In this document: in pieces, positions 18,037 to 36,100 of the stretch
Position numbering within the stretch: the first letter of the stretch is position 1
How the letters are laid out: the number at the start of each line of letters is the position of its first letter
Source of the DNA: Octopus vulgaris
Taxonomy: Eukaryota
Assembly: GCA_951406725.2 (NCBI GenBank)
Contig: OX597832.1
Coordinates: forward strand, 31,248,001-31,312,000
Reading direction: 5' to 3'
Length of the DNA stretch: 64,000 nucleotides
Position numbers and translations under genes: made by a program
The notes under the pieces: model-generated
The model's database searches: none
Seen by the model: only the letters and a program-made list of their open reading frames with translations
What the model was told of the DNA's origin: nothing

Positions 18037-21000
18037 CACGATATACGTACATAAAGCAATCTTAGTCATCTTGACTAAAGATTGAGAATGCAAGAAGGGA
18101 AAAGACAAGGAAAACATTGGAGGGTGAAGGCAGCATTTGCGTCCTAGGTTTTTTCTTTTTTGAAAATTCTTTAGTCAATGTTAATCTCAATCAACACTGA
18201 CTCCCACAGAAAGAGAGGGATGCGGGTGTGCGGAGCAACAGGGAGGGAGGGCTGGGTGTGGGGGTTGGGGGTATGCCAAGTGAAGAAGCTAAGAGAAGCT
18301 GAAGGAAGGAAGGAGAGATAGATTTCAGAAATGTACCGAGTCACCACGAGCGACAGAGGCCACTTGGAACCCAGTGGTAAATGGTAGGATGTGGAATGGT
18401 AGAAAGCCTATCTTTTCAGTCAGATATGGCCAATGGTGGTAACAATATCGAATAGAATCACACACACTTTCGCAATCAAACTTCTCCATTTCCCTCACTT
18501 TTCCACAATCAATCTTTCACTCAAATATTCAATCTTTTTTTAATGTATACAGATATATATATATTTAGATTATTTTTTTAAAAAGATTTTCAAGTTTTTT
18601 TTTTATACATATAAGTTTCCATTTTAAAATTTTTTGGTTAAATTCTTTCTTTTAAAATCTTCTACAAGATAGACTCTCAAATTGCAAAAATATATATATA
18701 TATATTATTATATTTTAATATTTATACAAACCCCAACAAGGTCTGTGGTTTCAAATACTTGATAATGCAAAAATAGGATGAAGTATAAAATTACAACTAG
18801 GGCTGCCAAACTGGGGAAGCAGAACCAATGGGGTTTGAAAATTCTCTCTCTTTCTTTCTCACTCTCTCTCTCTTTCTCTCTCAAACTATGATAAGCTAAC
18901 AAGGGGAAGAACTTCAAAGACCCACAAAGTTTGAGACTTGGCTGTGAATATAACTGTGCACAAGATTTGAAACAAGTTTCCGTTGCCATCCTCACCGCTG
19001 CGAGTCCCAACAGACCTCAAGTTTGCAAATCGCACACAACAGACGACCTAAAAAATAACCATCAATATTTTCTTCTACGTCAACCTAGCTTGGGATAAAG
19101 CCCTACCAGCACCAAACAAAAGCCAATACATTGAGCATCAAAGTGGTGGTCAGTAGATGGAGAGGATTATAAAGCACAAAGAAAAATCACCACATGATGG
19201 CAGCATCCTTTTACATCTTAATATCCACAAAGCCAATTTATTATATACATACATATGACATATACGCATACATACATATATGATAATGGGGAGTAAGAGA
19301 TAGCGAGAACTGAACCTAAAGCCAAGCTATTGACTACATCCAACAAAACTCTTCGTGTAATGGTAGACTTATCCTTGTTTGCTTTTTTTTAAAAGTGATG
19401 ACTGTTCCAAACATGTAAAGCAACAGCACTGTGTGTGGGAGTGGGTTTAGATGGCACAGTGCAAAGCGGAAGAGAGTGAAACTGCAAGGTTTAGGACCGA
19501 GGGAGGGAGAGGTGCAAGAATTGCAGGCAAGAAAATGTGGACAAACTAAAAGCAAATATTTGAAATCAGGTAAAAAAACAAAAGACATAAGCTGGGTCTA
19601 TTCTTCCCAAAAGTTAGTAACTCCACACGAAGCCATCAACATTCACTCCAAAGAAAGGGAAGGGGTATTGGGCAGGGGGGTGCCGAGCTGGAACACTAAA
19701 TCATCCTAACTGAAAATGGCAGGCCATTCTGATAAAGTGGTTTCGCCTCTTCTATAGCAACTAAGACACACAAAGGCCACAGTTAATATTGTCCAGGAGC
19801 AGGCCAGTCTGATAGAGAGAAGAGAAATTAGATGAAAACAACAAAAAAAAACAAAAGGGGAGGGGTGCAAACCCCAACCAGGGCATGGGACCCCACCCCG
19901 TAAAAAAAAAATTCCAACCTAAATCTTGAGGACTTACCTATGTAATATGTTAACAGAAGTTTAATTCTTGGAGGCAGCAAAACCTATTTAATTTTGTTGT
20001 TTTTATCAATCCTAGAGAAAAATAAAAAAATCCAAGTTCCTCTTTTATATTTTCAAAAACCTTGAAGGCCCTCACCAAACTAACTGCACACACAAGAACA
20101 GAGTGGCTCTCCACTTAACCAACCAAACTTGCCTAATTAATGATTAACCATTAACATCACCACCATCATCATCATTGTTGTTGTTGTTGTCTTAGGCCAT
20201 TCTCCTCCGCCATCTACCACTGAACAAGCTGTACTATCAAATTGGCTGGTTGACATCTTTTTATTAAAATATATTTTAAGACTTTTGAGGATTAATAATG
20301 GGATGAACACCAGAATAGGTCCTGTAAGTTTTGTTTGTTGTTTTTTTTTCTGAAAGTTTTTTTTTGTTTTTTTTCCGAGTGTTGTGTGAAAGGAAGAATT
20401 GAGAGAAAAAAAAGACAAAAGAAAAGTTCAAGTGTCACAAGGAGTTGGGGGGAGGGGGAGGTGCCATCAGCAGTGGGAGGGAGGGAGGGAGAAAGGGAAA
20501 TTAGAGACAGCAGGGCGCCGCTCACCCAAAACAGCCAGTTCACCATTCTTAGCTTTGTGTGCCGCAAACACTAAGTGTAAAGATAATTTAAGATTTTTAT
20601 ATATTTTTATGGGGGGAAAAAAAAAAGGAACAAATTAAAAAATCCCAGGAAGATAAAAAAATAAAATAAAAAATAGTGAGGGGAAAGAAAAAAAGACAAA
20701 AATCATTTTCACCCCCCACCCACCTTTGAATGAAAATTATATTTTTTTCCTTTTATTTTTCATCTGTTTGCCCAATATTCCTGTCTTTAGTGGTGGTCAT
20801 TATCCCATACCAGCGGTCACAAATGGAATTTTTCACATAGGGAAGGTCAGGGGGGAGAGAGGGGAGGGGGGAAATCTTTATGATTTTTCTGTAGCTTAAG
20901 AATTGATGAATATTTTTTTTCTTTTCTTCTCTTGTTTATAATATTTTCTTTTTGGAGGGGAGGGGGCAAATCCTTGGATTCAACAAGGCACTTATCAGCT

Positions 21001-21279
21001 AGATTAATTTCACAGCAAAGTGGAAAACTTTTAAGTGAGCAAGCAAACAAATGAGAGGACAGGTCTGTGGTATGAAAATGGCGTGTGTGTGTGTGTACGT
21101 GTATGTGTGTGTGTGTGTGTGTAGAGCACTGGCAAATGTGTTTGTTTGCAAGTGCTGCTCCTGGTGGCTCTTCTTGGTCATGTTTCTGCTGTAGTGCAGT
21201 GGCACAATACTGGGCTCAACAGCTGCTGGGTGATGGCACCACTGCTCCATCTGCCGCTCGCAACAACACCCTCATAGCT
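14081..21279 (-). other. Putative long 3' UTR of PTB (end uncertain; several AATAAA candidates)
   Basis: Follows the stop codon, is U/C-rich on the minus strand and has no recognisable SINE. Minus-strand AATAAA at 20752-20757, 20260-20265, 19237-19242, 16254-16259 and 14081-14086. Confidence 0.45.
20985..20991 (-). promoter_or_regulatory. miR-124 7mer-m8 seed match (GTGCCTT) in the proximal 3' UTR
   Basis: Plus-strand aaggcac is complementary on the mRNA strand to miR-124 seed nt 2-8 (AAGGCAC); ~290 nt after the stop codon. Confidence 0.45.
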
Positions 21280-21348
21280 TCAAATTGTTGACTTGGAAAA
21301 TGAAACACGCAAATGATTGCTTTCACTCAAAGGATAGTTGTGGAGGCA
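21280..21348 (-). CDS. PTBP1: PTB terminal coding exon ([22 protein letters not shown])
   Basis: tttgcag|TGC CTC CAC...ATT TGA; C-terminus matches the PTB family end [11 protein letters not shown]. Confidence 0.97.
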   Translation of the reverse strand, partial: CLHNYPLSESNHLRVSFSKSTI

Positions 21349-24300
21349 CTGCAAAGAGAGAGAGAAAGAGAGGAAGAAAAAAAAGAAGAGCATTCGGTTA
21401 GGATTTCCAGAATTAACCCAAGGATTAGGCTTTTTTTTTTTTAAATGGGACGTTGACAAAAGCTTGAGGGGGGGAGGGAAGAAAGGGGGGAAAAAAGAAA
21501 AGGGAGCTTTGCATTCAGTGACCAACTCAGTGTATTTGATGGCAGACAAAATACATGGCACTACTTGGATGCACGATTTCAGCAGGTGAAAAAAAAAAAT
21601 GTACAACCAGGGATAAGATTAACTTATAGGAGTTCCAACTCTGCATGTAGGTACCCAGGGTGGTTTTCTTTTAATTTTTCTTTTGGGGTGGGGGGTGTCT
21701 TCAATGCTATCAAAGAAAGTAGCTTAGACAGTTACCAGGATTGTTAAAGGTTTCTTGCTCAACTTAGGGAATTCTATTCTACATAAGCACCAGCTACATG
21801 TTGCATCCCTAAGGATTTTGAAGAGCAAGAATATAGTGTACCACATCAGTCATGAGCGCCATGGTTAGAAGGGGTAAGAATAGCACAAGGTACAGACAGG
21901 GCAAAGCATGAATCAGGTTAAGGAGAAACAAATACTTACAATAAGAGCTTTCACAGCTTCTTCAATGGATCCCATTTGGATGAGGGCCATTTTCCTGTCT
22001 TTCCTAGAAGGAAAAAAAAAAAAAGGAAAAAATTTTATAAATACTTTTCTCAAAAACTATAAATACAGACAATGAGTTTTAACTCCTCCACTTAATCCTA
22101 TAACATTGATATTACGCTTAATTGTTTGGAATTATCTCTCAGTTTCAAGATCTTAAAATAACATTGTAGGGCAGGTGGGAAAGACTAGATCTGGCCAGTT
22201 TGAATGTAAGAACAGGTTAAATATTTTGGCCAATCAAAAGTACTGGTAGACGAAGCACTAAATCATCACCATTCATTGTCCATTCCACCCTCCAACTCCC
22301 ATGCAAAGGATGGGCCAGACAGTTCGACAGGATCTGGGTGGGCTGAGGGGCTGCCTCAATTTCCAGTGCCAGCCAGGGAATGGGTCCTTTGTGGCTGGAC
22401 ACCCTTCCTAATGCCAACCAATTTACAGTTTGTACTGAACGGGCATCTTTTTCTGCTGCTGGCACCAACGAAATCACTAAGTAACTTGCAACAAAAAAAC
22501 CAAAAAAAAAAACCATTCAACGAAGGAGAGGAGGGGGTGCGTTTGTGTCAGGGTAAAGTATTGTGGACAAACAAGCGCAGGCATATTGCTACAGGAAAGA
22601 TAGCAGAGCTGCCCAGCATTATATAAAGGCGAGTGGGGTGACTTCCGAAACAGTCTACATGGGTCCATCATTAAATACCATTATTTATTAACAGCAAACA
22701 CTGAAGTGAAATAACTCTAAATAATTAGTAAATATATTAGTGTGTAGAGTAACAGCAGCCATATTAATAAGTGAAAGGACAACATGGGAGCCATGATGCA
22801 GTCACATGATGAGGGGTGGCCAAACCTTAAATCACACACTCGTCTACACTGAGCATTGAAACCTTTGGTAAGATAAGAATTTTGGTCATTGGCAAAAGCA
22901 GTCAAGAGAGATTAGGTCTTACGCCTGCTTTTCCATGCCAGCATGGGTTAGATAGCATTGGCTCACAGCCTGATGCCTTTCCTCTCACTAACCACATTTT
23001 TAAGTAAGAAAGATGTTACTCCACATGGCATTGAAAGCATGAAGCAGATGATGGACAGTTTCTAGTGAAGAGCACTGACCACCTTACCAAACTGGACACT
23101 CAGTTCCTATTGATCCAATCAACTGAGCACTCCAGACATGCCCCACCCACCCCAACCAAATGTAGTTCTCAAAAAAGGACAGCACAACTACATGAAGTGT
23201 GGCAATTACAGGTACAACACATTTCGGCCAGTCGAGTGGACAGGAGCAATGTGAGGAATTGAACCCACGGTCTTAAAATTGCGAGCTAAACACAGCAACT
23301 ACAGTCACATGCCAATGGAATCAGATACAGGCACAAACACACACATAGAAAGATCCTTCAGTTTCTGCCCACGAAATCCCCACTGGCAAGGCTTTGGTTG
23401 GCCCAGAACTATTAGAGACGACATTTGGCCAAGGTGCAGTGCAGTGGGAGTGAACCTGGAAGCAGGGGATTGGGAAATGAACGTCTTAAACCACCCCTGG
23501 CCCAGCCTTCATAAATAAAGAGAGAGGAAACAAAATACTTACGGAAAGAATTTGAACCCTTTTACAGTGCCATATTCAGCAAACATATCTTTGAGCTGTT
23601 CTTCAGGAACATTAGATCTGAAGAGGGTAAAATGAGAGGGATTCAAGGAATGGAAGAAAACATGAGCAGAAGTGAAATATTCAGGAAGATTTGGAGCCGG
23701 AAGAAAGTGGGTCCGGGGATACTCACGGAATGTTAGATAAATGCAAAACTGCTGAGGGGGGGAATATATTCTGACAGTTCTTTGAGCCAGGTCGCTTGAA
23801 TCTGTGGAGTGGGGAATTTGTGTAGTCTCTTGTTAAGCCGGAATCCTGCAACGAGAACCAAGCAATAGCAGAATGATACAAGAAAAAACAAAACCGATTA
23901 ATTTCAAATTTCAAGTGAAATCCATCAATGCCAACGGATAGATATTTGCTACCTGCTGGCCTTCCTTGGGCATCTGGACCACTGTGTGTTTGGAGGGAGC
24001 CACCCTGATCTGTTTGCCATACAAAGTCAGCTTATCCAGGTAAGTTTTGGCTGAAACAGAGAGAAAGAGAGAAAATGAAACATTAGAGGCGTTTTGTGTG
24101 TGTGTGGGGGGTCAGGGTCGGAAAGGATTTAAGTTGATAAATTACAACCGGAACAGCCAAAGAGTGAGGGGGGGGACGGAGGAGAGAACTTACCTAATTG
24201 AGCATGGTGAGGCTCCGCCATTTGTACCAGTGCATTATCCTTCTTGTTGAAAAGGATTTTCACGCGTTGCACATCACCGTACACACCTAGTAAAATAAAA

Positions 24301-25891
24301 AGCACAACATGTACTGAGACTGGAGTAAAAACCGATGAACCGAACTAGATTTGTCGAGGACTGGGTCTTAGGAAGACACTAGCCAAAACCCTGTCTTCGA
24401 AACACCTTAACATGGAACTCACACCCCACCCTGCACCATACCGTAGTGGTTTGGCCTTAACAAGGAAGGACAAGTTTGTTTTTGTGCCAACAGGGGCCAG
24501 TCTCTTTCTTTAAAAGTGGCCCAAATTAGGATTCAAGGAGCCTGCATTGCTTTATTAGGATATACAGGTGTGTGTGTGTAGCTGTTTCCATGTCAACATG
24601 GATTGAATCAGAATATTGTGTAAAATAAGTACAACATGTGGTGAACGCCCAAGAACAATATGTGAAAATGGAAAGTGCCAGAATAAGTTTTGAATACAAC
24701 AATAATCAATGCTGTTCTAAAGAGGTTCTGCATAATTTCTGATTAAAAATGCCCAATGGTCGAGCTTTGGGAATGGAAATTGGATGAGCCATTAGCGAAA
24801 CCAAAACTGTGTGTGTGTGTTACATAAAATCTGTGCTTTCTGAAGAGCATGCGTATTTTGAGCAGAGTGGACCATATGATACCAGACTAAAATACCTGAC
24901 TGAACCTCCTGACACAGCCAGGGTCTCCACCACCACTTACCTGAGGAGGGGAAGAAGGGAGAGAGAGAGAGAGAGAGAAAGAGAAAAAAAAAAAAAAGTA
25001 ATCTTTTGAGTGTAACTTTATGTATGAAAAACCCACGCAGCCCTTGGAAGAAGTAACCATCATACTTTATTAAAACGGTTCTTTAGGCTATGTTGGAAAA
25101 TAATCAAACACTGAACACCTCACCTGTTGTCAGGAGAGAGGAAGAGAAAGAGAGAAAGATGAAAAGGGGGAGGGGAGGGGTCAGAAAATTAATTAATTAA
25201 AAAAAAAAAAAAGAAGAAAGAAAACTAAAAACAATTAAAAAAAATATATAAATAAAGCATGATGGAAGTAATTGGTTTCAAGACTGGTTATTAATTTAGA
25301 AGAAGCTGAAGTGAGTGATCTTGGAGAAGGTTTGGTTAAGTTAGTTGGCACTAAAAGAAATAGAGCTGGACACAATAGAGACTCAGTCAGGTAGCAGCAG
25401 TGGCAGCGGCAGCAGCAGCACATCTCTTGGTGTTAAAAGAGAGAACATTAAATGAAATGTCACTTAGCTTTTCTAAGTTTTTCTATATAAATTGTCAAAT
25501 GAAATAAAAGAGTGCTTAAAAACATACCAAAAAGGGTAAAAAGAACGTCGGGCGTGACCATCTAGAGTCATAGGAACAGGAATATAGCAGAGCGGAAGAT
25601 AGGGTGAGATCAGTGTCCGAGCGAGCGATAGATAGTCCATGTGGAGGAACACCAGCGAAGTAAGTTGGGACGGAAAAAAAAAAAAGAAAAAAAAAGAAAA
25701 AAAAAAGAGAAAATAGGAACAAATCAGTGTTGTTGATACATGATTGTGTAAAATGGAAGATAAACTCTGAAAAAGAGCAAAGAACAACAATATCAATGAA
25801 AGTAATACAGTGTGGTACAGGCAGCAGTGGCTGGTCAAGGGTGGTTAGTTGGGCAGCTAGTGTAGCAGTAGCATCAGTATAGGAGGAGGAG

Positions 25892-25922
<31 letters not shown>

Positions 25923-27455
25923 TGGGTAATTAGTGGGGGGAAGGGGGAGAGAGAGAGAGAGAGAGAGGGAAAAAAAAAAGACATGCTAATGAGGAAGCAT
26001 GCATAACGAAGTATTGAAGGAGAGGAGAGGGAGCATTTGGTTGAAATTTTGGGGAAAAAAAAAAAAAGAGAGAGAGAGGGGGGTGGGGAAAAGGTATTCT
26101 AAAAGAGCCAAGTGTTATTTGTAAGGAATTGTGAGGTTTTGTGAGAGATGGTCAGATGTGGACAGAGCTAGCTGATGTAGAAGAGACTGGGTCAAGAAAC
26201 CACAGCGATAATGGTCAGAGGTTTGGGTGGCTCCAGCAGACAAAGACAAAGAATTGGTGGACCAAAGCAGGAGGAAATTGTTGAGAAGTGGAAGAATTGT
26301 TTCTCATGAGATGATGCATTGAAGAAAAATGAGAAATCCTGCCCCACCCCCTAACCATTAGGTGATATGTCGGAGGAGGAGGAGGAGCTTTTTCTACAGA
26401 CAGTGTTTGGAAGACACAAGAAGTTTGCAGTTAGCACCATATCCAAAACCAATCTTGATCCATCATGAGTTTGTTAGGCAGAGGAGCACATGGATTGGGG
26501 TGGGGAGGAGGAGATAAAAGAAAAAGTCTTCACAACAAAAATATTTTTTTTTGGTAGTAAAAGTTCTGCGAAGGAACCAGAGAAAGAGACAAATTCTAAA
26601 AATCTAAAAAAAAAAAATGAAAGAAGAAAAAAAAAGATTCCTGGTCAAACAGCAAAACACTTGTGGGCAGCCATTTTGTGGGAAGTTGTCCACTCAAATG
26701 ATGCAGTGAGATTAGAGAATGGAAAGGAGATGGCGCAGGCAGATAGGTCGCAGAATGTAGAGGCCTGCGAATGTAGAGGTGGTGGTAGACCTTAATACCC
26801 CAGTCTTTCTGTCCAGATAAACGTTTTTTTATTTTTTATTTTTTCTTTCTTCTGTATAGATGTCAGGGTATAAACTAGACAATATACGTATCAAATAAAT
26901 AAAGGGCACATACCTCTTCATCCAGATTGGAAACCAAGAGCACACAGTTACCAGCTTGAGATTGTAAGGGCATACTGAGCCGTGCAGCACCCATACCTGC
27001 AGCAGTCAAACCAAAGCCAGACATCGGTACAGCTGATAGAACAAAAAAAGCAACACAATTAATTTGACTACATTAGTCCCTGCTTCAGTGAAGAACCCAC
27101 ACCTTGAGTTTAGTTGTAACCGCAGCAGCAGCCGTTGTCGTTTAACACTCTGTTGTCACTTCACACTATTATTATTATTAGTAGTATTAGTATTAATCAT
27201 TTAGAACTTTGCTAACAGTGATGATGAAGCAGGGCTGTTCCTAATAAAATGTTTGCAATAAGCTTTACAGTTTACAAAGATAATTTTATTTAAATATAAA
27301 TAATTGTGGATTGATTTTAAATTTCTAAATTGGAATTGTAAAGTCTTGGTTTTAAATGCAAAAATGAATCTAAAAAAAATACATGAAAGTAGGTTAGTAT
27401 TGAGAGAGAGAGAGGGAGAGAGATCGATACATAAAATGAAACATGCAAGAATATT

Positions 27456-27493
<38 letters not shown>

Positions 27494-29079
27494 AAATGGG
27501 GGAAAGTGGCAGTTAAGTAGGAGGACCCCACAAAGATGCCCCTCATTAAACGGTGGTTCAGAGATGTGTTACAAATGTTGCTGCTGTGAAGTCTGGTTTC
27601 AGATGAAGAATTTACGAAACTGCTAATTACTACAATGCTTACTTATCGCCTACCAATTTGCCTGTAAACAGTGCAGTGAACGACAATGTTCACCGATGTT
27701 AACATGAAACAATGGTTCACGGGGTCAAGAAGACAAAGTTAACATCACTGGACAACCAGAATGTCAAAAAGGGGTCGGGAAACACACACACCATTTTACA
27801 TTAACCTGTTAGCAGCATTTCAAACTGGACACATCTAAACCCTGTCCAAACTGGCCCCTCACACCTATCCTTACAACATTCTAAAAATCTCATTATTCAC
27901 ATCTCAAAGCTACAAAATACTGCATGAATAATTCAAAGCAATGTGAATAAACAAACAGAACATTTAACAAGGTAAGCTGAATATCAAAAGGGTTAAAGGT
28001 AATTTGAAATTAACCAATTTAGCCCCAAATTGGTAAAAATATCACCAAGAGAAAACAGAAGAACTATTTTTCCACTCTCTGTTGTGAATCCCCATGGCAA
28101 CGACCGTGTTTGAGGGCACAAAAGACACGGGTGGAGTGGAGGCATCCCAGTTTCAGCAGGGCATATACAGAGTGCCAGGGACAAAAATTAGCTTATATGC
28201 TGTCCAGCTTTGAGGAGCCAGGGTAATTTTGAGGTGTGGGGTAGGGTGCTTCTTATAGGCCAGTCAACATGGGTGACCTCTTAGGAGAGCATCTTTCATT
28301 TGTCTAATCCATACTAGCACGGGAGAATGGACTTGGAATGAAGTGACTTGCATTATACAAGAGACAAAAACCATATTCTACAGAAAGGAGACATCAATTC
28401 AACCCAAAACACATATCCAGATACCCCAGAAAAACTATTACACAATGCTATAGGTACAGGGGTGACTGTGGTGGTGGTAGTACCCTGAGCAAACGTCTTC
28501 TACTCTAGCCTTGGTCTAACCAAAGTCAGATGGAAACTGAAAGAAGCCTGTCATATGTAGTAGATTGTGTGTGTGAGAGTCTGTGTTTGTCCACCATGAC
28601 AACTGGCGTTGATGTGTCGACATCTCCGTAACAGTGGTTTAGCAACAGAGACCGATGTTGTAAGGGGTCAATGGGTTCAATCAAAATTTCTCCAAGGCAG
28701 TGCTTCACCATGGCCATAGTCTAATGCTGATGTATGTGAAAACATATGCATGAGTGTAGAGGTTTATTAAATAAAGATCATAGGTGAGGGTCACCAATCG
28801 CTGGTCCCTGTAGACCCAGAGTAAAAGAGATCTCCCTCAAACCACACTTCATCTCAAAATGGCAATCATATTGGAGTTCTAAATGTTTACACGGGATGGT
28901 CATGGTTGGAATGATTTTGATCAATGGTCTGCTTGTTCAGTGTTGACAAAGCAAAGATCAGGGACAAAACAGCAGTTTTATTAACATATAACAGGACGGA
29001 CAGACAGACTCACAATCAACAGAGATCAACAAGATTAGTAACGAAGCCTCAACAAGAAAGAAAGAGAAAGGAGAGAGAG

Positions 29080-29111
<32 letters not shown>

Positions 29112-30113
29112 AAGAGCCTTTGTAGACAATAAAATGCCTTTCAGATTAATTGACATTAGTCAAATCAGTCTCCTCGTTAGTTGGATGCTGAAGTTAATTA
29201 GAAGACCGGTCAGTTCTGATAAACAAACACTACACGACTAACGACTAAACAGTATAGAAAACTCACAGCAGCAGTTGTTAGTAGAGAGAGAGAGAGAGAG
29301 ATGAAATGAGAAAGAAGAGAATGGAGAGTATGGTTAGAGACAAACAGCAGAACATGCAGAGAGAGGAGGGATTAGAAACATTACAGGTAGAGTTGAAAAA
29401 AAAAAAAAAAGGTGGGGGGGATAAGGCTACCAAAAGAGTTGGAAGAGAGACTTACCTGGCGGACCCACTCCGGGAGCTACAAGCAAGAGAAATGCAAAGA
29501 ATCAGGCTAGAGCCTCAGAAGGAACGGTTTTTATGAGGATTAAAGACATGTCAAAGTTTAGAAGGGTGGGCGGGGAAGAAGAAGAAAAAGATTACCTGTA
29601 AGTAAGTCAAGAAAATGTAACAAGGTACACCAAGATTTTGCAAGACCAAGGACCAAGGCATGCAAGAGAGAAAAACCATGAGAAGAGGACCAAGCAAAAG
29701 AGAAAAGATTTTTTTTTACCAAACCCAGAACAGATGACTGATGGGGTTTAAGATCCAGCAGAGAAAAATGTGATTAATTCTTTTAAATTAGAACAAACAC
29801 AGAGAAGATGGCTGAGAGTTTGAAAATAGGCATTTAGAAAGATTTAGCAAAATTCTACCTCCCATCACCTTGGTTGAAGTGAACTAGCAAAGATATAGCC
29901 AGGACAGTTTGTCAGAGGAGCAAGCAAAGCTAAATCCATGCCATAAAGTTTAACCAGGGTAGTAGTGCTTTTTAGATTATTTTACACACCAGAAGTCCTA
30001 AGAGAAAAAGGATCGTTAGACATTAAATGCAAATAGCACGCAAAAGAGAAAATGGATTTTTTTTTTTTTAAAAACAGATGTTGCATTATATGAAATGCAG
30101 TAGGGCTGGGGGA

Positions 30114-30154
<41 letters not shown>

Positions 30155-33100
30155 ATAGACCAAACACAAAAGAGATATTAGAAGCATGCATGTTCAAAAC
30201 TACCACCCTGGCTTATCAAAATTAAAAATGCTACACTACCAGAAGTGCAGATCTGCATATCAGCACCAATATACTGCTGACTGGGGTCAGAAAGCAGCGT
30301 AGCTCCGGGTGCGGCACCAAATGTGGTTAGTGGGGCAGTTCCTAGGCCAGGCACAGCTGCAATTGTCGACGACAACACACCAGGGGAACCTTAACACATT
30401 CGTAAACAAGGAGCATGCGATTAATCCAACGCTTTAACAACACCAACTGGACTCTTGCATACGTTCCATCTAGAGTTGAGTTCACGAGAAACTCTTAATC
30501 GAAAAACATCTGACGACCAACGAGTTTTATCTGATATGCTAAACGCACACCTGTACAGAATATGTAGAATTTATAAAAGTATTTCACTGTTAAAACTTGA
30601 GATTACTCATAATTAGTAGCTTAGATGGAACATACGCTAAAATAAATATAAAAATTAATAATAAAAATAACGATAAAAAGAATGAAATCTTAAATTAAGA
30701 GCCTGGCCAACTTTGCCCAAAAATGGATTTCATTAGACAAGATATTTCATGCAACATGGACTGGCCAAAAATTTGTGTCTGTGTAGCACTAAAGTTGGTT
30801 AAATTGATTTCTTCGACAGGGTCAGATGAGGAAGAACATGGATGGGAAGGAAGGTAGGGTAGTCGAGGAAGAATAAAAGCAGGTGAGCAGAGCAACCAAG
30901 CATTGGAGGTGGGAGGGTTTCCTGCCTTCCAGTGCGAAGGCGAGTCCAAGGCCAAAAACATTAGGTGCACAAATGAGATAAGATGGATGACGATGATGGT
31001 AAGAGCAAGAAGCACAACAGAAAGAGATGGAAAAAACAGACAATCATATCCGTGGGAAGAAACTCGAGTTCAGAACATTTCTCTCTTGCTCGCACACCAA
31101 ACACATTCAGAGTGTCTCAAGAAATGGTTAATTCATGGCAGAAACAGAATTAGAAAAAGAAAGAAATTCATGAGTTGATTGGAAAATCGCTTTTCAGTAC
31201 ATTTCACAAGTGTGTGTGTGCATGTGTGTTGTAGTATGCGTGTACACACACGTATATATAAAAAAATGGAAGAACACAAAAAGAAACAATACAAGGTAGA
31301 AATATATCAGACGTTTGTCTAAAACTGAGTAATAACAGCGAACCGTCAGCTTGGAATGAATGTTAGGTGTATATACGTGTGTGTATATACGTGTGTGTAT
31401 ACACACATACAGAGATGAAATGGAAAAGAAAAAAACAAAACCAAAAGTAAAGATATGATTTGTGTTGATATTAGTACGAAGAAAGTGCTTCACAGAAGTC
31501 ACAAAACACTGAGCTTAACAATGGCTTTAATTGTCTTTAAATTAGTGTAATTAAAGCAATGAAGGGTAAAATGTAAAGTAGAAATCATTTCTAATAACGA
31601 CAGTCTTGCAACTGTTTACATATTTCCGGTTTTATACTCTTCTCATAACATGCACAAGAATAAGGACTGATGGATTCGATGGAAGTGTACTTACCAAAAG
31701 TCAAAGCCTGATCCACGGAAGCGTCACCAGCAGGGAGGCTGGGATTGGTGTAGTCTCGGCTCTTCTCATTATTGTACTTTACATTAAGACTCGTCATTTT
31801 TGAATAATCAATTCTCATCGTACAGCACCCATTGTAAATATTCTGACCATCCAAAGTCTACAAGAGAGAAACCAAACCATTGGAGTAGGGGCCAGTAAAC
31901 TTCTATCACTGACCTCACCCATCCCACCAGTAGGGGCCAGTAAACTTCTATCACTGACCTCACCCCCCCCACCAGTAGGGGCCAGTAAACTTCTATCACT
32001 GACCTCACCCACCCCACCAGTGGCCATCATACAAATTTCTGAATGAAAATTACAAAATGTTTGACATGCCAGATCAGGTTAGTTTAAATGCTAAAGGGGG
32101 TGCCACATAAGAAGCACCCGGTTCATTTTGGGCATTAGGGAGGGTATCAAGCCATATAAACCCTGCCAGAGTCTGGTGTAGCTCTCCAGCACCTCTCAAA
32201 CTGTCCAAGCCATCCATGCCAGCATGGAAAAGATGTTGGATGATGAAGAGGATGGTACTTGGAATTTGGTGAATATGGGTTGATTGCATCGAGGTTTTGG
32301 ATGGAAATTATTGAATTTTTAGCCTTAAATTCTTCATGCTCTTCTAAATTTATATCCACACTATCTTCACAGCGTTTAAAACTTAACATTTTTTTCTGGG
32401 ACCTTAAATAGCCAAAGTGACCCTCAACAGTATTAACTACTTTGCCAACCCTGCATTAGATCAATGGCCATGCTAGAACTAGTTTTTTTTTTTTTGGGGG
32501 GGGGGGGCATCAGCTGACATTTCTGCTTAGAAGAGAAAATACAGGAATCCAGATTTCACTTAGCCCTTAATTATAGCTGACTTCTACTAGCACAGGTCAG
32601 ACACACACACTTCTGCTTATAAAATCCACTTGCAACATTTCATAGACAGCTCAGAGCTTTAAAACCATTTGTTCAAGGTGCTTGCAAAGTGGGACAATCC
32701 GAACCACAAAGTTGAAAAACAAACTCCTTCACCACTCTGCTATGACTGCAGCTTTTCTAAGCAGCCACTAACCTAAGTACGAACAAGGATTCAAAATAAC
32801 TGCCAACATGAACTACAGGGGGTAAACCCTTCACAGATGTGAAAAACTGTACTTACCATTCGGGCACTTCTTGCACTGACTGGGTCGCTAAACTGTATGA
32901 CGGCCTGATAGGTATCTATGAAGAAAAGAGTTGGAAGCCCAGTTAGCCTCGTCAGAAGCAGGTTTTGCAGGAGATACATTATCTAAGACTTATTTGATTT
33001 TGAATTTGGTGGGGGATTACTAAAACAACATCGTCAGGAGTCTGAATGCAACTTTACAAAAAAAATGTCTCATGCAAAATTATGTCGGTAGCCACACTTC

Positions 33101-36100
33101 CTTTCAAATTTGCTTAACTGTGAGGGGAAGAAAAAAACCCTCCATTTTAAATTGAACGGTGTATCATGCTGGCTGTTTTGCAATTAAAAAGAGTGGCGAC
33201 ATTTTGAGGAGAAGTGGCACCAATAGAGAGTGTGTACACTTTGATGGGATTTGTTGTCAGAGAAGCAAGGGTTAAGTCTTTAACATTGTAAGAGTGCTCC
33301 TGCCACCCATTTCTTTAGGAAACAAACTTCAAAGAAATATACTCACTATTTTTTGTGAATGTAATAATCTTCTGAATCGTCCCAAATTTGCAAAATATCT
33401 GAAAAAAACAGACCAGAAGTGGTGGTCACATGATTGATTAATTCAAAGACATCAATGAATCTTGATTACATCAAAGCCGTAATTATAAATCTCGTTATCA
33501 TCTTTACCTGATACAGAATGTCTATGTTGATTTGGAACACCATGTTATCTATAATAACTCTCAGAATGGTCTTGTTCATTTCCTCTGGACTTCCCATGAT
33601 GGCCTGTGCAGCCTGCAAAGCTGCTTGAGTATTTGTGTTCTGGAAAACAACAACAGCAACATTGGAGGACAAGATATACAAACAAAATGGAAAATATCAC
33701 AAGAGAGTGGAACAAATGTCAGAAAGAACCCCAACACATTCACTCGTTGTGTGCATCAGAGAAGAAGTCAGGTCAACAGAAAACCTTACCTGTACCACAG
33801 AATCACACATTTTGGCAGTTGACTATCAGAGAATGCAGCTGACCATAAAAGCCAGTTCTAGAAACATGAGTCACCATAGAACAGGAGGAGGTTAGAGAAA
33901 TTTTAATTCATGATAAAAGTAAACCCTTGCCGAACATTAGAGTGAACGTATGTGGCCTAAAGGTTAAGGGGATATTGGATCAATCCTCCTCTGACTGGAC
34001 CGTATATAATGCCCTTGGGCAAGTCATTTCACTCTACATTGGCTGCAGCCTGTTTATCTGAAAATGAGCGCCAACAGCAGGAGCTGTGTGACCCAACCCT
34101 GCAATAGACTGGCATCCCATTCAACATCCTCACTTGTTTTACTGCTACAAACAGGGACAAGCACCAACCCAAAGGAGTTTCTGGGCAGAACACATTCCTG
34201 ACACCAGGACAGTCATTCTCAACCACTTTTTCTTTTGATGACTCATTTTACTCTGGTGGATCCCCTAACCAATCTTACTTCAAAGATGTCCCTTCCAAAA
34301 GTCTGTAGAAACACACCCAAAGCAACATTTTTTCATGGAGCCAATTTGCCATTTTTTCTTGTACGGACCCCAGTTGAGAAATGAAATTTAATTTAGAGGT
34401 TTACAGGTGAGAGAAAACATACTACAGCAGCAGCAGTAGTAGTAGTAGTAGTAGTAGTAAGTAAGAAAACAGTAGTGAACCCACTTGATAAGGATGTGCT
34501 ACGTCTATCTTCAACTCCTTGTGGTTGGAAAACTGGACATAGACATCTTTGTTGCGTACTCTAGGTTTGTCGTTTGTGTAATATAACACCATTGATTCTG
34601 CTTGTCTCTCGTCTGAGAATTCCATGAAAGCCTACAGACAAAAACAAAAGGCAAAGATTAAGTTTGCAACCAAGATGATGATGATGATGATAATGCATTT
34701 CACAGAACATTCAAAGGGATGAAGGCCAAGCAAAGTGGAAAACTCTACTCGAGTGTGAATTGCAAAGAAATTAAAAGGTGAATGCATACCTGATTCTTTT
34801 GCTTCAGGAGTAGAAAATTGGTTATGCGGCCAAAAGGTATGCCAAGAGGAATAACATCTTGGTCAGATGCCTCTATTGGGAGACCACGCAGATGAACAAC
34901 TTTAGACACTGTAGCTGCCTGGCTCTGCTCCAGTTTTACCTACAAGTTTAAAAAGAAGAAAAAAAAAACATTTTATTTCATATTTCTATGGAAAATATTA
35001 ACAAAACAAATGTTTTACTTATTAACAACTCTTTATTCACCCAAGATTATCATCAGCAATGAAATGGACTGATGGTCTGATGCGATTAATTACACAAACA
35101 GAATGCAAGAAATAAACACCCTGCCAGCCACAGTTACACTGCCAAGGGAGGGAGGGGAGGGGGAGTGAGAGAGAGGGAGAGCGAAATAATTCATCCAAGA
35201 ATGAGTGTAGAAAGTGAACAGTTCTCAACAGTGTATAAATGAACATCACTAAATATTGATAGGAAATATTTGTATGTACTAAAACACCACAATTCCAGAG
35301 TTATCACACAAACACGGTATGGTCCCAATATACAAAAAAGAGGAATTCCTAACATTAATAACGAGAATATAATTCCAGTTTGCAACGGCAACAAAACAGA
35401 CAAGATGTGTATTTGGGACACGGGCACCTACACTTAACGTTTGTATCTATACGCTACAATTTCTCATCACCGTCTGGCCTCTCCTAACAACTTCAGCATC
35501 CACACTTGCACACAACTAGTTTCACTTGATATTCGAAGCAGAAACACATGGCCAGACACAAAGAAGCACCAAGTTGCCAGCTAACATCACCACCACCACC
35601 ACACGCGACTAATCAGGGAGGGACTTCAATATTCCAAGTTACAAGCACACTGGGGGAATACATATAAAGAGTAACATGCAAAAGTTCACAAAACTCCTTA
35701 CCTTTTTGGCATCATTGTTCATATCTGCACTATCCACGTGGTGGGGGCTCATCCCGGTCCCGTTCGTAACCATTGGGCTGTGGGACATAAGTTCTTCCGA
35801 TCCTCTCTGTAATAAAATAGGCAGCAATGTCACAAATCAACAAAAACTGTATTATTATCCAACAATTTTTCCTTTTTTTGGTGGGGATTGTGTTAATTCT
35901 GTATTCATTGACAGAAAACTCAGTACTCACACAGAATTGAAAAGCAATTGATTTGCCCGGTAAGACTTGCTCAAACAATTGAGAGGTTATTCATTATAAA
36001 TGTCGGCATCCACCCCTGCCTTCCGCCCCACAAGCCGACTGCATTTCTTAGAACAAACACCAACTGCACACACCACACTGAATTCCAATGTTATAAGTAA

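Follow-up and report, generated by a model that had tools for sequence, protein, structure and literature searches.

Two AG|GT sites beside the 34-nt switch exon of an Octopus vulgaris PTB gene: a possible nested poison/recursive exon

Why should two acceptors, each followed at once by a donor, lie in one short intron next to the NMD-switch exon of a PTB gene? The gene is located on the minus strand of the 64-kb stretch of Octopus vulgaris DNA analysed here (the window, to which all positions refer), and the original prediction was that two zero-length (AG|GT) sites in the intron 3' of the 34-nt switch exon might provide a recursive route by which PTB brings about skipping of that exon. We find this interpretation partly supported, and recast it as a nested poison/recursive exon that PTB would normally keep closed. 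The coordinates on which it was built all proved correct, i.e. those of the 34-nt exon (25561-25528), the two sites (A and B below), the donor at 24896|24895 and the intron, which is 1,241 nt long.

The RRM2 exon used as query showed 100% identity to PTB isoforms of O. vulgaris, O. sinensis and O. bimaculoides, human PTB RRM3-4 aligned with the octopus protein with an E value of 7e-87, and the RRM3 exon that was tested had a single match in the 2.8-Gb genome. The exons around the intron are listed here together with the conserved flank of the switch exon.

26914..27032, minus strand: upstream coding exon (end of the linker and start of RRM3), ends GAG|gtatgt, in agreement with annotated Octopus isoforms
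25528..25561, minus strand: the 34-nt exon of the NMD switch, which corresponds to PTBP1 exon 11 / PTBP2 exon 10; donor TTG|gtatgt
25498..25527, minus strand: conserved intronic stretch directly 3' of the switch-exon donor, common to two mollusc-like loci and partly to insect-like loci
24194..24286, minus strand: downstream coding exon, RRM3, with the premature stop of the skipped isoform inside

That the 34-nt exon is the PTB NMD switch was borne out. Skipping it shifts the frame and gives a stop after 8 codons, and in four skipped cDNAs among 56 intron-free records from other invertebrates (L049, L055, L068 and L071) the upstream exon is joined directly to the downstream exon with a stop at the same place; the search of other animals gave 80 loci, 24 of them genomic and 56 continuing into the downstream exon without an intron. 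By protein alignment the octopus exon has the position in RRM3 of the human PTB exon that we take to be number 11. Human PTBP1 exon 11 bears this number in PMC3856098, and the octopus exon shares with it and with PTBP2 exon 10 the position in RRM3, the length of 34 nt and an early stop upon skipping (PMC3856098). Conservation across loci extends from the switch exon through its donor to the first 25-30 bases of the intron, which argues that the PTB switch is old and that its conserved signals adjoin the exon. The conserved part of the autoregulation is this 34-nt exon.

Other features of the gene and its counterparts were observed as well. The octopus and two mollusc-like loci share intronic sequence on both sides of the switch exon (25498-25527 and about 25600-25670 in the window; L038:6170-6370; L050:3840-4060), with TAAGCAC-like words after the donor and GCTGG and ACACTGA upstream, and GCAC follows the donor in insect-like loci too; these shared words are candidate ancient regulatory elements. 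In both mollusc-like loci the switch exon is 31 nt long (L038:6309-6339; L050:4000-4030) and begins AG|GTCAC, and skipping it still shifts the frame. In annotated isoforms the RRM2-RRM3 linker is strongly alternatively spliced (window 29456-29476, 30240-30390 and 26996-27032) and the isoforms differ in a microexon of 21 nt, in a cassette that has two acceptors, and in whether the next exon starts at an acceptor 36 nt further in. Some 120 nt 5' of the microexon there is a cag|GTAATC with a modest tract (about 29596, minus strand), and in an isoform of a relative (proteins P0009, P0010 and P0151) the reading continues past the microexon donor, so that the linker is some 13 residues longer. Pyrimidine tracts are also dense in the intron 5' of the switch exon, where strong acceptors lie at 25766 and 26565 (minus strand), neither being followed by GT.

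Site B is cag|GTGAGG at 25124|25123 and site A is cag|GTAAGT at 24941|24940, both on the minus strand and 183 nt apart. If a strong acceptor is taken to be one whose tract has at least 79% pyrimidine over 24 nt, the 1,241-nt intron has just two internal ones, B and A, and GTRAG comes directly after each. Across the introns of the gene from 21000 to 36000, scanned except for one short part, there are seven strong internal acceptors, of which only A and B are followed by GTRAG, and in the whole window, on either strand, YAG|GTRAG preceded by a tract that is 80% pyrimidine or more occurs nowhere else.

Could the two sites nevertheless be accidents, i.e. microsatellite-like CT runs that end in CAG and donor-like hexamers, neither spliced nor bound? 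CT runs abound in octopus introns, and the minus strand of the window has 74 runs of at least 16 pyrimidines; two of 29 other genomic matches to the motif of site A (L010 and L023) resemble microsatellite accidents, the motifs are missing from 13 orthologous introns, and the locus was chosen in a genome scan for showing this very pattern. Against this, composition predicts 0.002 such sites in the intron where two were observed, control hexamers that are not donors occur about 10 times each genome-wide after such acceptors, and none of 20,000 intron shuffles in 6-nt blocks had two sites (8 in 10-nt and 126 in 20-nt blocks, longer blocks transporting motifs whole). We regard an accident as very unlikely, and sites A and B are confirmed as real and in excess of chance.

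The sites had been predicted to be two independent zero-length exons. It was overlooked that the CAG|GTAAGT of A, a perfect ordinary donor, lies 183 nt beyond acceptor B, and that the two together delimit a candidate exon of ordinary length in which each frame contains a stop. This is the simpler reading of the pair. The elements concerned are given below.

25124..25200, minus strand: acceptor B, with branch-point-like TTAAT (three times) and CTGAC (A near 25181), C-rich tract and CAG
24941..25123, minus strand: candidate 183-nt poison exon, starts GTGAGG, stops in three frames, ends CAG|GTAAGT
25104..25106, minus strand: TGA stop six codons inside the candidate exon when the 34-nt exon precedes
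25066..25071, minus strand: AATAAA hexamer of the candidate exon, which might be a poly(A) signal
24944..24998, minus strand: 54-nt pyrimidine run (T/CT/C) within the candidate exon, the tract that precedes acceptor A and a likely site for PTB
24935..24943, minus strand: site A, CAG|GTAAGT, which would give the 183-nt exon a perfect donor and, with its ratchet-point consensus, may also be an acceptor
24896..24940, minus strand: candidate 45-nt RS-exon, donor CAG|gtattt

At acceptor B, CTGAC lies at -58 and TTAAT at -66, -70 and -74, and there is no AG over 103 nt upstream; the donors that follow are a weak AAA|gtatga at +58 and site A at +183. Read in its three frames, the 183-nt segment meets its first stop at codon 12, codon 1 and codon 6, joining the upstream exon to it gives a stop after 11 codons, and five or more junctions follow 3' of it. 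Its last 56 nt are 96% pyrimidine, and CTCT and TCTT are abundant in both tracts.

With donor strengths taken as simple consensus-match counts rather than from a trained model, the zero-length reading of B fares poorly. Splicing to B would regenerate TTG|GTGAGG or GAG|GTGAGG, with 4 matches after the 34-nt exon and 5 after the upstream exon, vs 7 of 7 for CAG|GTAAGT, the exon's own donor at A, so that the 183 nt should mostly be kept and the mRNA directed to NMD; whether an RS-exon is included is described as settled in just this way, by which of the two donors, regenerated or downstream, wins (PMC8605326). Leaving B by the zero-length exit would then be a minor route, as in the nonsense exon of rat tropomyosin. 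GTGAGG is not an enriched follower of strong acceptors in the genome (2 matches vs 4 for the control GTGACG), while GTGAGT was found 18 times vs 10 for GTGACT (34 rows) and GTGAG 19 times vs 18 for GTGAC among the first 100 of 169 matches. The GTGAG after B must be either chance (roughly 1 in 100, as we estimate) or a selected zero-length exit.

The rat alpha-tropomyosin (Tpm1) nonsense pseudo-exon with its zero-length exon was reportedly described by Grellscheid and Smith in 2006. In the accounts of it in PMC2773006 and PMC5126111 it resembles the octopus segment in being an intronic, exon-like segment beside a regulated exon, with an acceptor directly followed by a donor, in that its inclusion is predicted to cause NMD, and in that the outcome can depend on which upstream exon has been joined. 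The Tpm1-type features found in the octopus are a bona fide acceptor (B) followed by a donor, CAG|GTAAGT at +183 and stops in all frames. Unlike Tpm1, both ends of the octopus segment are AG|GT (the 3' end being a tract plus CAG|GTAAGT) and the host gene encodes the regulator. We read the B-A pair as a candidate poison pseudo-exon of the tropomyosin type with a zero-length option.

B might also open an alternative last exon, whereby a PTB product ending in RRM3 would escape NMD. The acceptor is strong, the stop comes early (25104-25106), and AATAAA is found 52 nt into the segment with a GU/U-rich stretch after it; however, AATAAA is common locally (10 matches in 3.75 kb on both strands where 4.5 are expected), the truncated isoform was not seen among the proteins examined, and site A would be left unexplained. 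We consider such a last exon highly improbable.

Our preferred reading, which we put forward tentatively and from the sequence, is that A and B may be the two ends of one hidden 183-nt stop-containing exon that PTB normally silences. PTB competes with U2AF65 at pyrimidine tracts (PMC3856098), and high PTB should therefore close acceptors B and A; PTB on both tracts may in addition help to repress the 34-nt exon from downstream, PTB-repressed exons often needing sites on both sides (PMC3856098). When PTB is low the module would open, either through B as a poison exon or through A as a stepping stone that is neutral or favours inclusion, and the whole would represent a lineage-restricted addition to the conserved switch. 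The proposed recursive route to PTB-driven skipping is unlikely for the same reason, since PTB on the tracts should block the acceptors: the two steps would be shut exactly when skipping is wanted, and A would only preserve a choice made earlier. The GAG|GTAAGT that this route would regenerate, called perfect in the original prediction, is one base off consensus. CU repeats at PTB-repressed cryptic exons were reportedly noted by Ling et al. in 2016. PTB suppresses non-conserved cryptic exons that yield NMD targets (PMC7058386), and the octopus segment has in common with these the lack of conservation, the predicted induction of NMD and the flanking CU-rich tracts; it differs from them in lying inside the PTB gene itself and in its perfect donor, which suggests selection. 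Some points weigh against a PTB-silenced poison exon. Its opening at low PTB would make a positive feedback loop, unlike the autoregulation known for PTB, and the donor 45 nt beyond A fits an RS-exon pattern for which a poison exon has no need (such a donor has a background of 144 of 1,189 windows). Nor is the exon conserved in 13 orthologous introns or seen as peptide among 183 proteins (see below).

The second donor leads to the genomic class to which site A belongs. Site A is one of 49 matches to Y16-N-CAG|GTAAGT in the 2.8-Gb genome; with 16 alternative tails the same acceptor gave 200 matches, 49 of them with GTAAGT (binomial P 1e-16), roughly fivefold the average for each of the other 15 tails. 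A reversed-pattern control (1 match) was rejected as unfair because real acceptors inflate the forward count, and alternative hexamers were used. Site A and 29 others (L006-L034), the first 30 of the 49, were looked at in detail. A donor-like 9-mer at +30 to +90 was present at 15 of the 29 other sites vs 144 of 1,189 flank windows (P 4e-7), and 7 of these 15 downstream segments have stops in all frames and are therefore not ordinary coding exons. Three same-strand pairs of sites are less than 300 kb apart where 0.13 are expected. Since many of the other sites (the 15 of 29 with a second donor) look like true ratchet points, recursive splicing appears to be present in octopus, and the excess of motifs, the fly-type donors and the same-strand clustering together make it likely.

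That site A fits a ratchet point held up as far as its consensus, the usual distance of its donor and the selected genomic class are concerned. Fly ratchet points carry a cryptic RS-exon of about 50 nt (PMC8605326), and site A has the same Yn-N-CAG|GTAAGT with a weaker donor downstream, 45 nt away here and about 50 nt in flies, a second donor downstream also being the layout of the octopus class. The 45-nt segment had been predicted to be in frame, which is so after the 34-nt exon, where keeping it adds 15 residues inside RRM3, but not after the upstream exon. The octopus case is unlike Drosophila in its 1.2-kb intron, C-rich tract and in-frame RS-exon, and in that the donor regenerated at B is weaker than the one downstream (4-5 vs 7, compared with 5-6 vs 5 at A by the crude count). 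Because the long intron is lacking we do not class site A as a ratchet point, though its anatomy (consensus and downstream donor) fits.

Site A is also atypical of the genomic ratchet-like class in having a 54-nt C-rich tract, no branch-point match and a short intron. The C fraction of the last 16 bases of its tract, 0.625, is the highest of the 30 loci, the 15 loci with a downstream donor having at most 0.31, and its pyrimidine run of 54 nt compares with 16-24 nt in 26 of the 29 others. No branch-point match was found within 60 nt of site A, whereas 17 of the 29 others have one. A strong acceptor lying 50-300 nt upstream, as B does of A, is found at only 4 of the 29, and the segment downstream of site A is open in frame with 58% G+C.

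The inner tract abuts CAG, and A may therefore act as an acceptor as well. Its regenerated donor would then probably beat the donor at +45 (5-6 vs 5 consensus matches) and the choice made at the 34-nt exon would be preserved. TTG|GTAAGT, formed when the 34-nt exon is joined to A, is a native donor elsewhere in the PTB gene (31695), and together with the donor counts this suggests that use of A should mostly leave no trace. Could A, perhaps with B, be a true recursive stepping stone, with an upstream donor joined to 24940 and the GTAAGT then to 24286, and with the 45-nt RS-exon only defining the site? PTB would again close the site, and what the site would favour is inclusion of the 34-nt exon at low PTB, not its skipping at high PTB. 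The exact ratchet consensus, shared with 48 other sites and enriched with its GTAAGT as described, the donor at +45, and a TTG|GTAAGT that is better than the exon's own TTG|gtatgt all speak for this. Yet the intron measures only 1.2 kb, and fly recursive sites are mostly in introns of >10-40 kb (PMC6110457); the tract of A is atypical and has no branch-point match, B loses the donor competition with a GTGAGG of no enriched class, and the motifs are missing from the 13 orthologous introns. To us a stepping stone of this kind is doubtful.

Conservation was looked for in the 24 genomic loci, of which 13 gave whole introns and 9 partial introns that were scanned (2 were left out). YAG|GTRAG was present in none of the 13 complete orthologous introns of other invertebrates (24.5 kb), which are non-independent and come from about six lineages, with insect, crustacean and mollusc proteins as their closest matches, and no such site was seen in the 9 partial introns. 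In one mollusc-like intron (L038) a CAG|GTAATT follows a tract of 67% pyrimidine and has a donor 76 nt beyond it; we rejected this site as too weak for conservation. Peptide from the 45-nt or the site-B segment was absent from 183 proteins, including 36 of 58 Octopus cluster members (22 of the 37 members of the largest Octopus cluster being outside the comparison), and from further 17 and 10 protein hits. Annotations seldom include NMD isoforms, however. For the 96-aa frame across site A there was only one match among 1.84 billion representatives, and this was weak and unrelated. Other searches were negative: the genome holds no informative second copy of the 1,241-nt intron (four short weak matches), an Rfam scan of 24200-26500 gave no match, and RNA folding over 24860-25200 gave nothing unusual (z 0.41). 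Of at least 20 sequencing runs that contain the stretch, the 20 listed include none recorded as RNA, which speaks neither for nor against use of the junctions.

The orthologous introns bear on one further explanation, namely that the tracts, seldom spliced, act on the 34-nt exon from downstream as decoy acceptors or as silencers to which PTB binds, the donor behind each AG being a fail-safe through which an accidental splice does no harm. Strong internal acceptors occur in 6 of the 13 introns (8 sites) and none is followed by GT, the octopus sites are unused in the annotated isoforms examined, and PTB often needs sites flanking a repressed exon on both sides (PMC3856098). A decoy 3' site located 3' of a cassette exon is known from caspase-2 In100, which like the octopus intron has a branch point, a tract and CAG, and in which PTB is involved (PMC2082412). 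In100 however requires a U/C-rich domain after the CAG, and this is missing here, a donor standing in its place: B has the branch point, the 30-40 nt tract and the CAG, but the next 40 nt are about 55% pyrimidine at B and about 40% at A where In100 has >70% U/C over 20-60 nt after CAG. We rejected identity with an In100 element, and a perfect 9-base donor exceeds what a site that is never used would need. Silencers or decoys of this type are rather unlikely, as we judge it.

A similar recursive idea was tested at IL7R exon 6 and not upheld (PMC8051268), which shows that the motif alone is not proof. For vertebrate PTBP1 and PTBP2 the literature searched gave no description of an AG|GT module downstream of the switch exon; the downstream elements known for PTBP2 exon 10 are RBFOX sites (PMC8455679), and TGCATG is absent from the octopus 1,241-nt intron. 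The same search, with most subscription papers outside its scope, returned no zero-length or poison exon next to the switch exon of PTB and no recursive splicing in octopus or other cephalopods, and the consulted parts of PMC2773006 report enrichment of ratchet sites in insects and in sea urchin but do not mention molluscs.

A bolder and, in our view, improbable extension of the poison-exon reading would be two opposed NMD switches, with the 34-nt exon skipped at high PTB and the 183-nt exon opened at low PTB, both ends of the latter being recursive sites and its donor doubling as a ratchet acceptor, so that a single gene could be held within a band of expression or latched off, e.g. in neurons. 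If true, one octopus PTB gene would do the job that is split in vertebrates among PTBP1, PTBP2 and miR-124, by means of a two-switch module built from a genome-wide ratchet-point system. Should the module be unused, the locus is the well-known conserved NMD switch with PTB-type tracts nearby. If it is used, a splicing regulator would control itself through a nested poison/recursive exon in a short intron, which would provide a route to switch down a single PTB gene in a large invertebrate nervous system. Finally, and possibly of wider import, the excess of perfect ratchet motifs points to cephalopod recursive splicing, for which there are 49 candidate sites.
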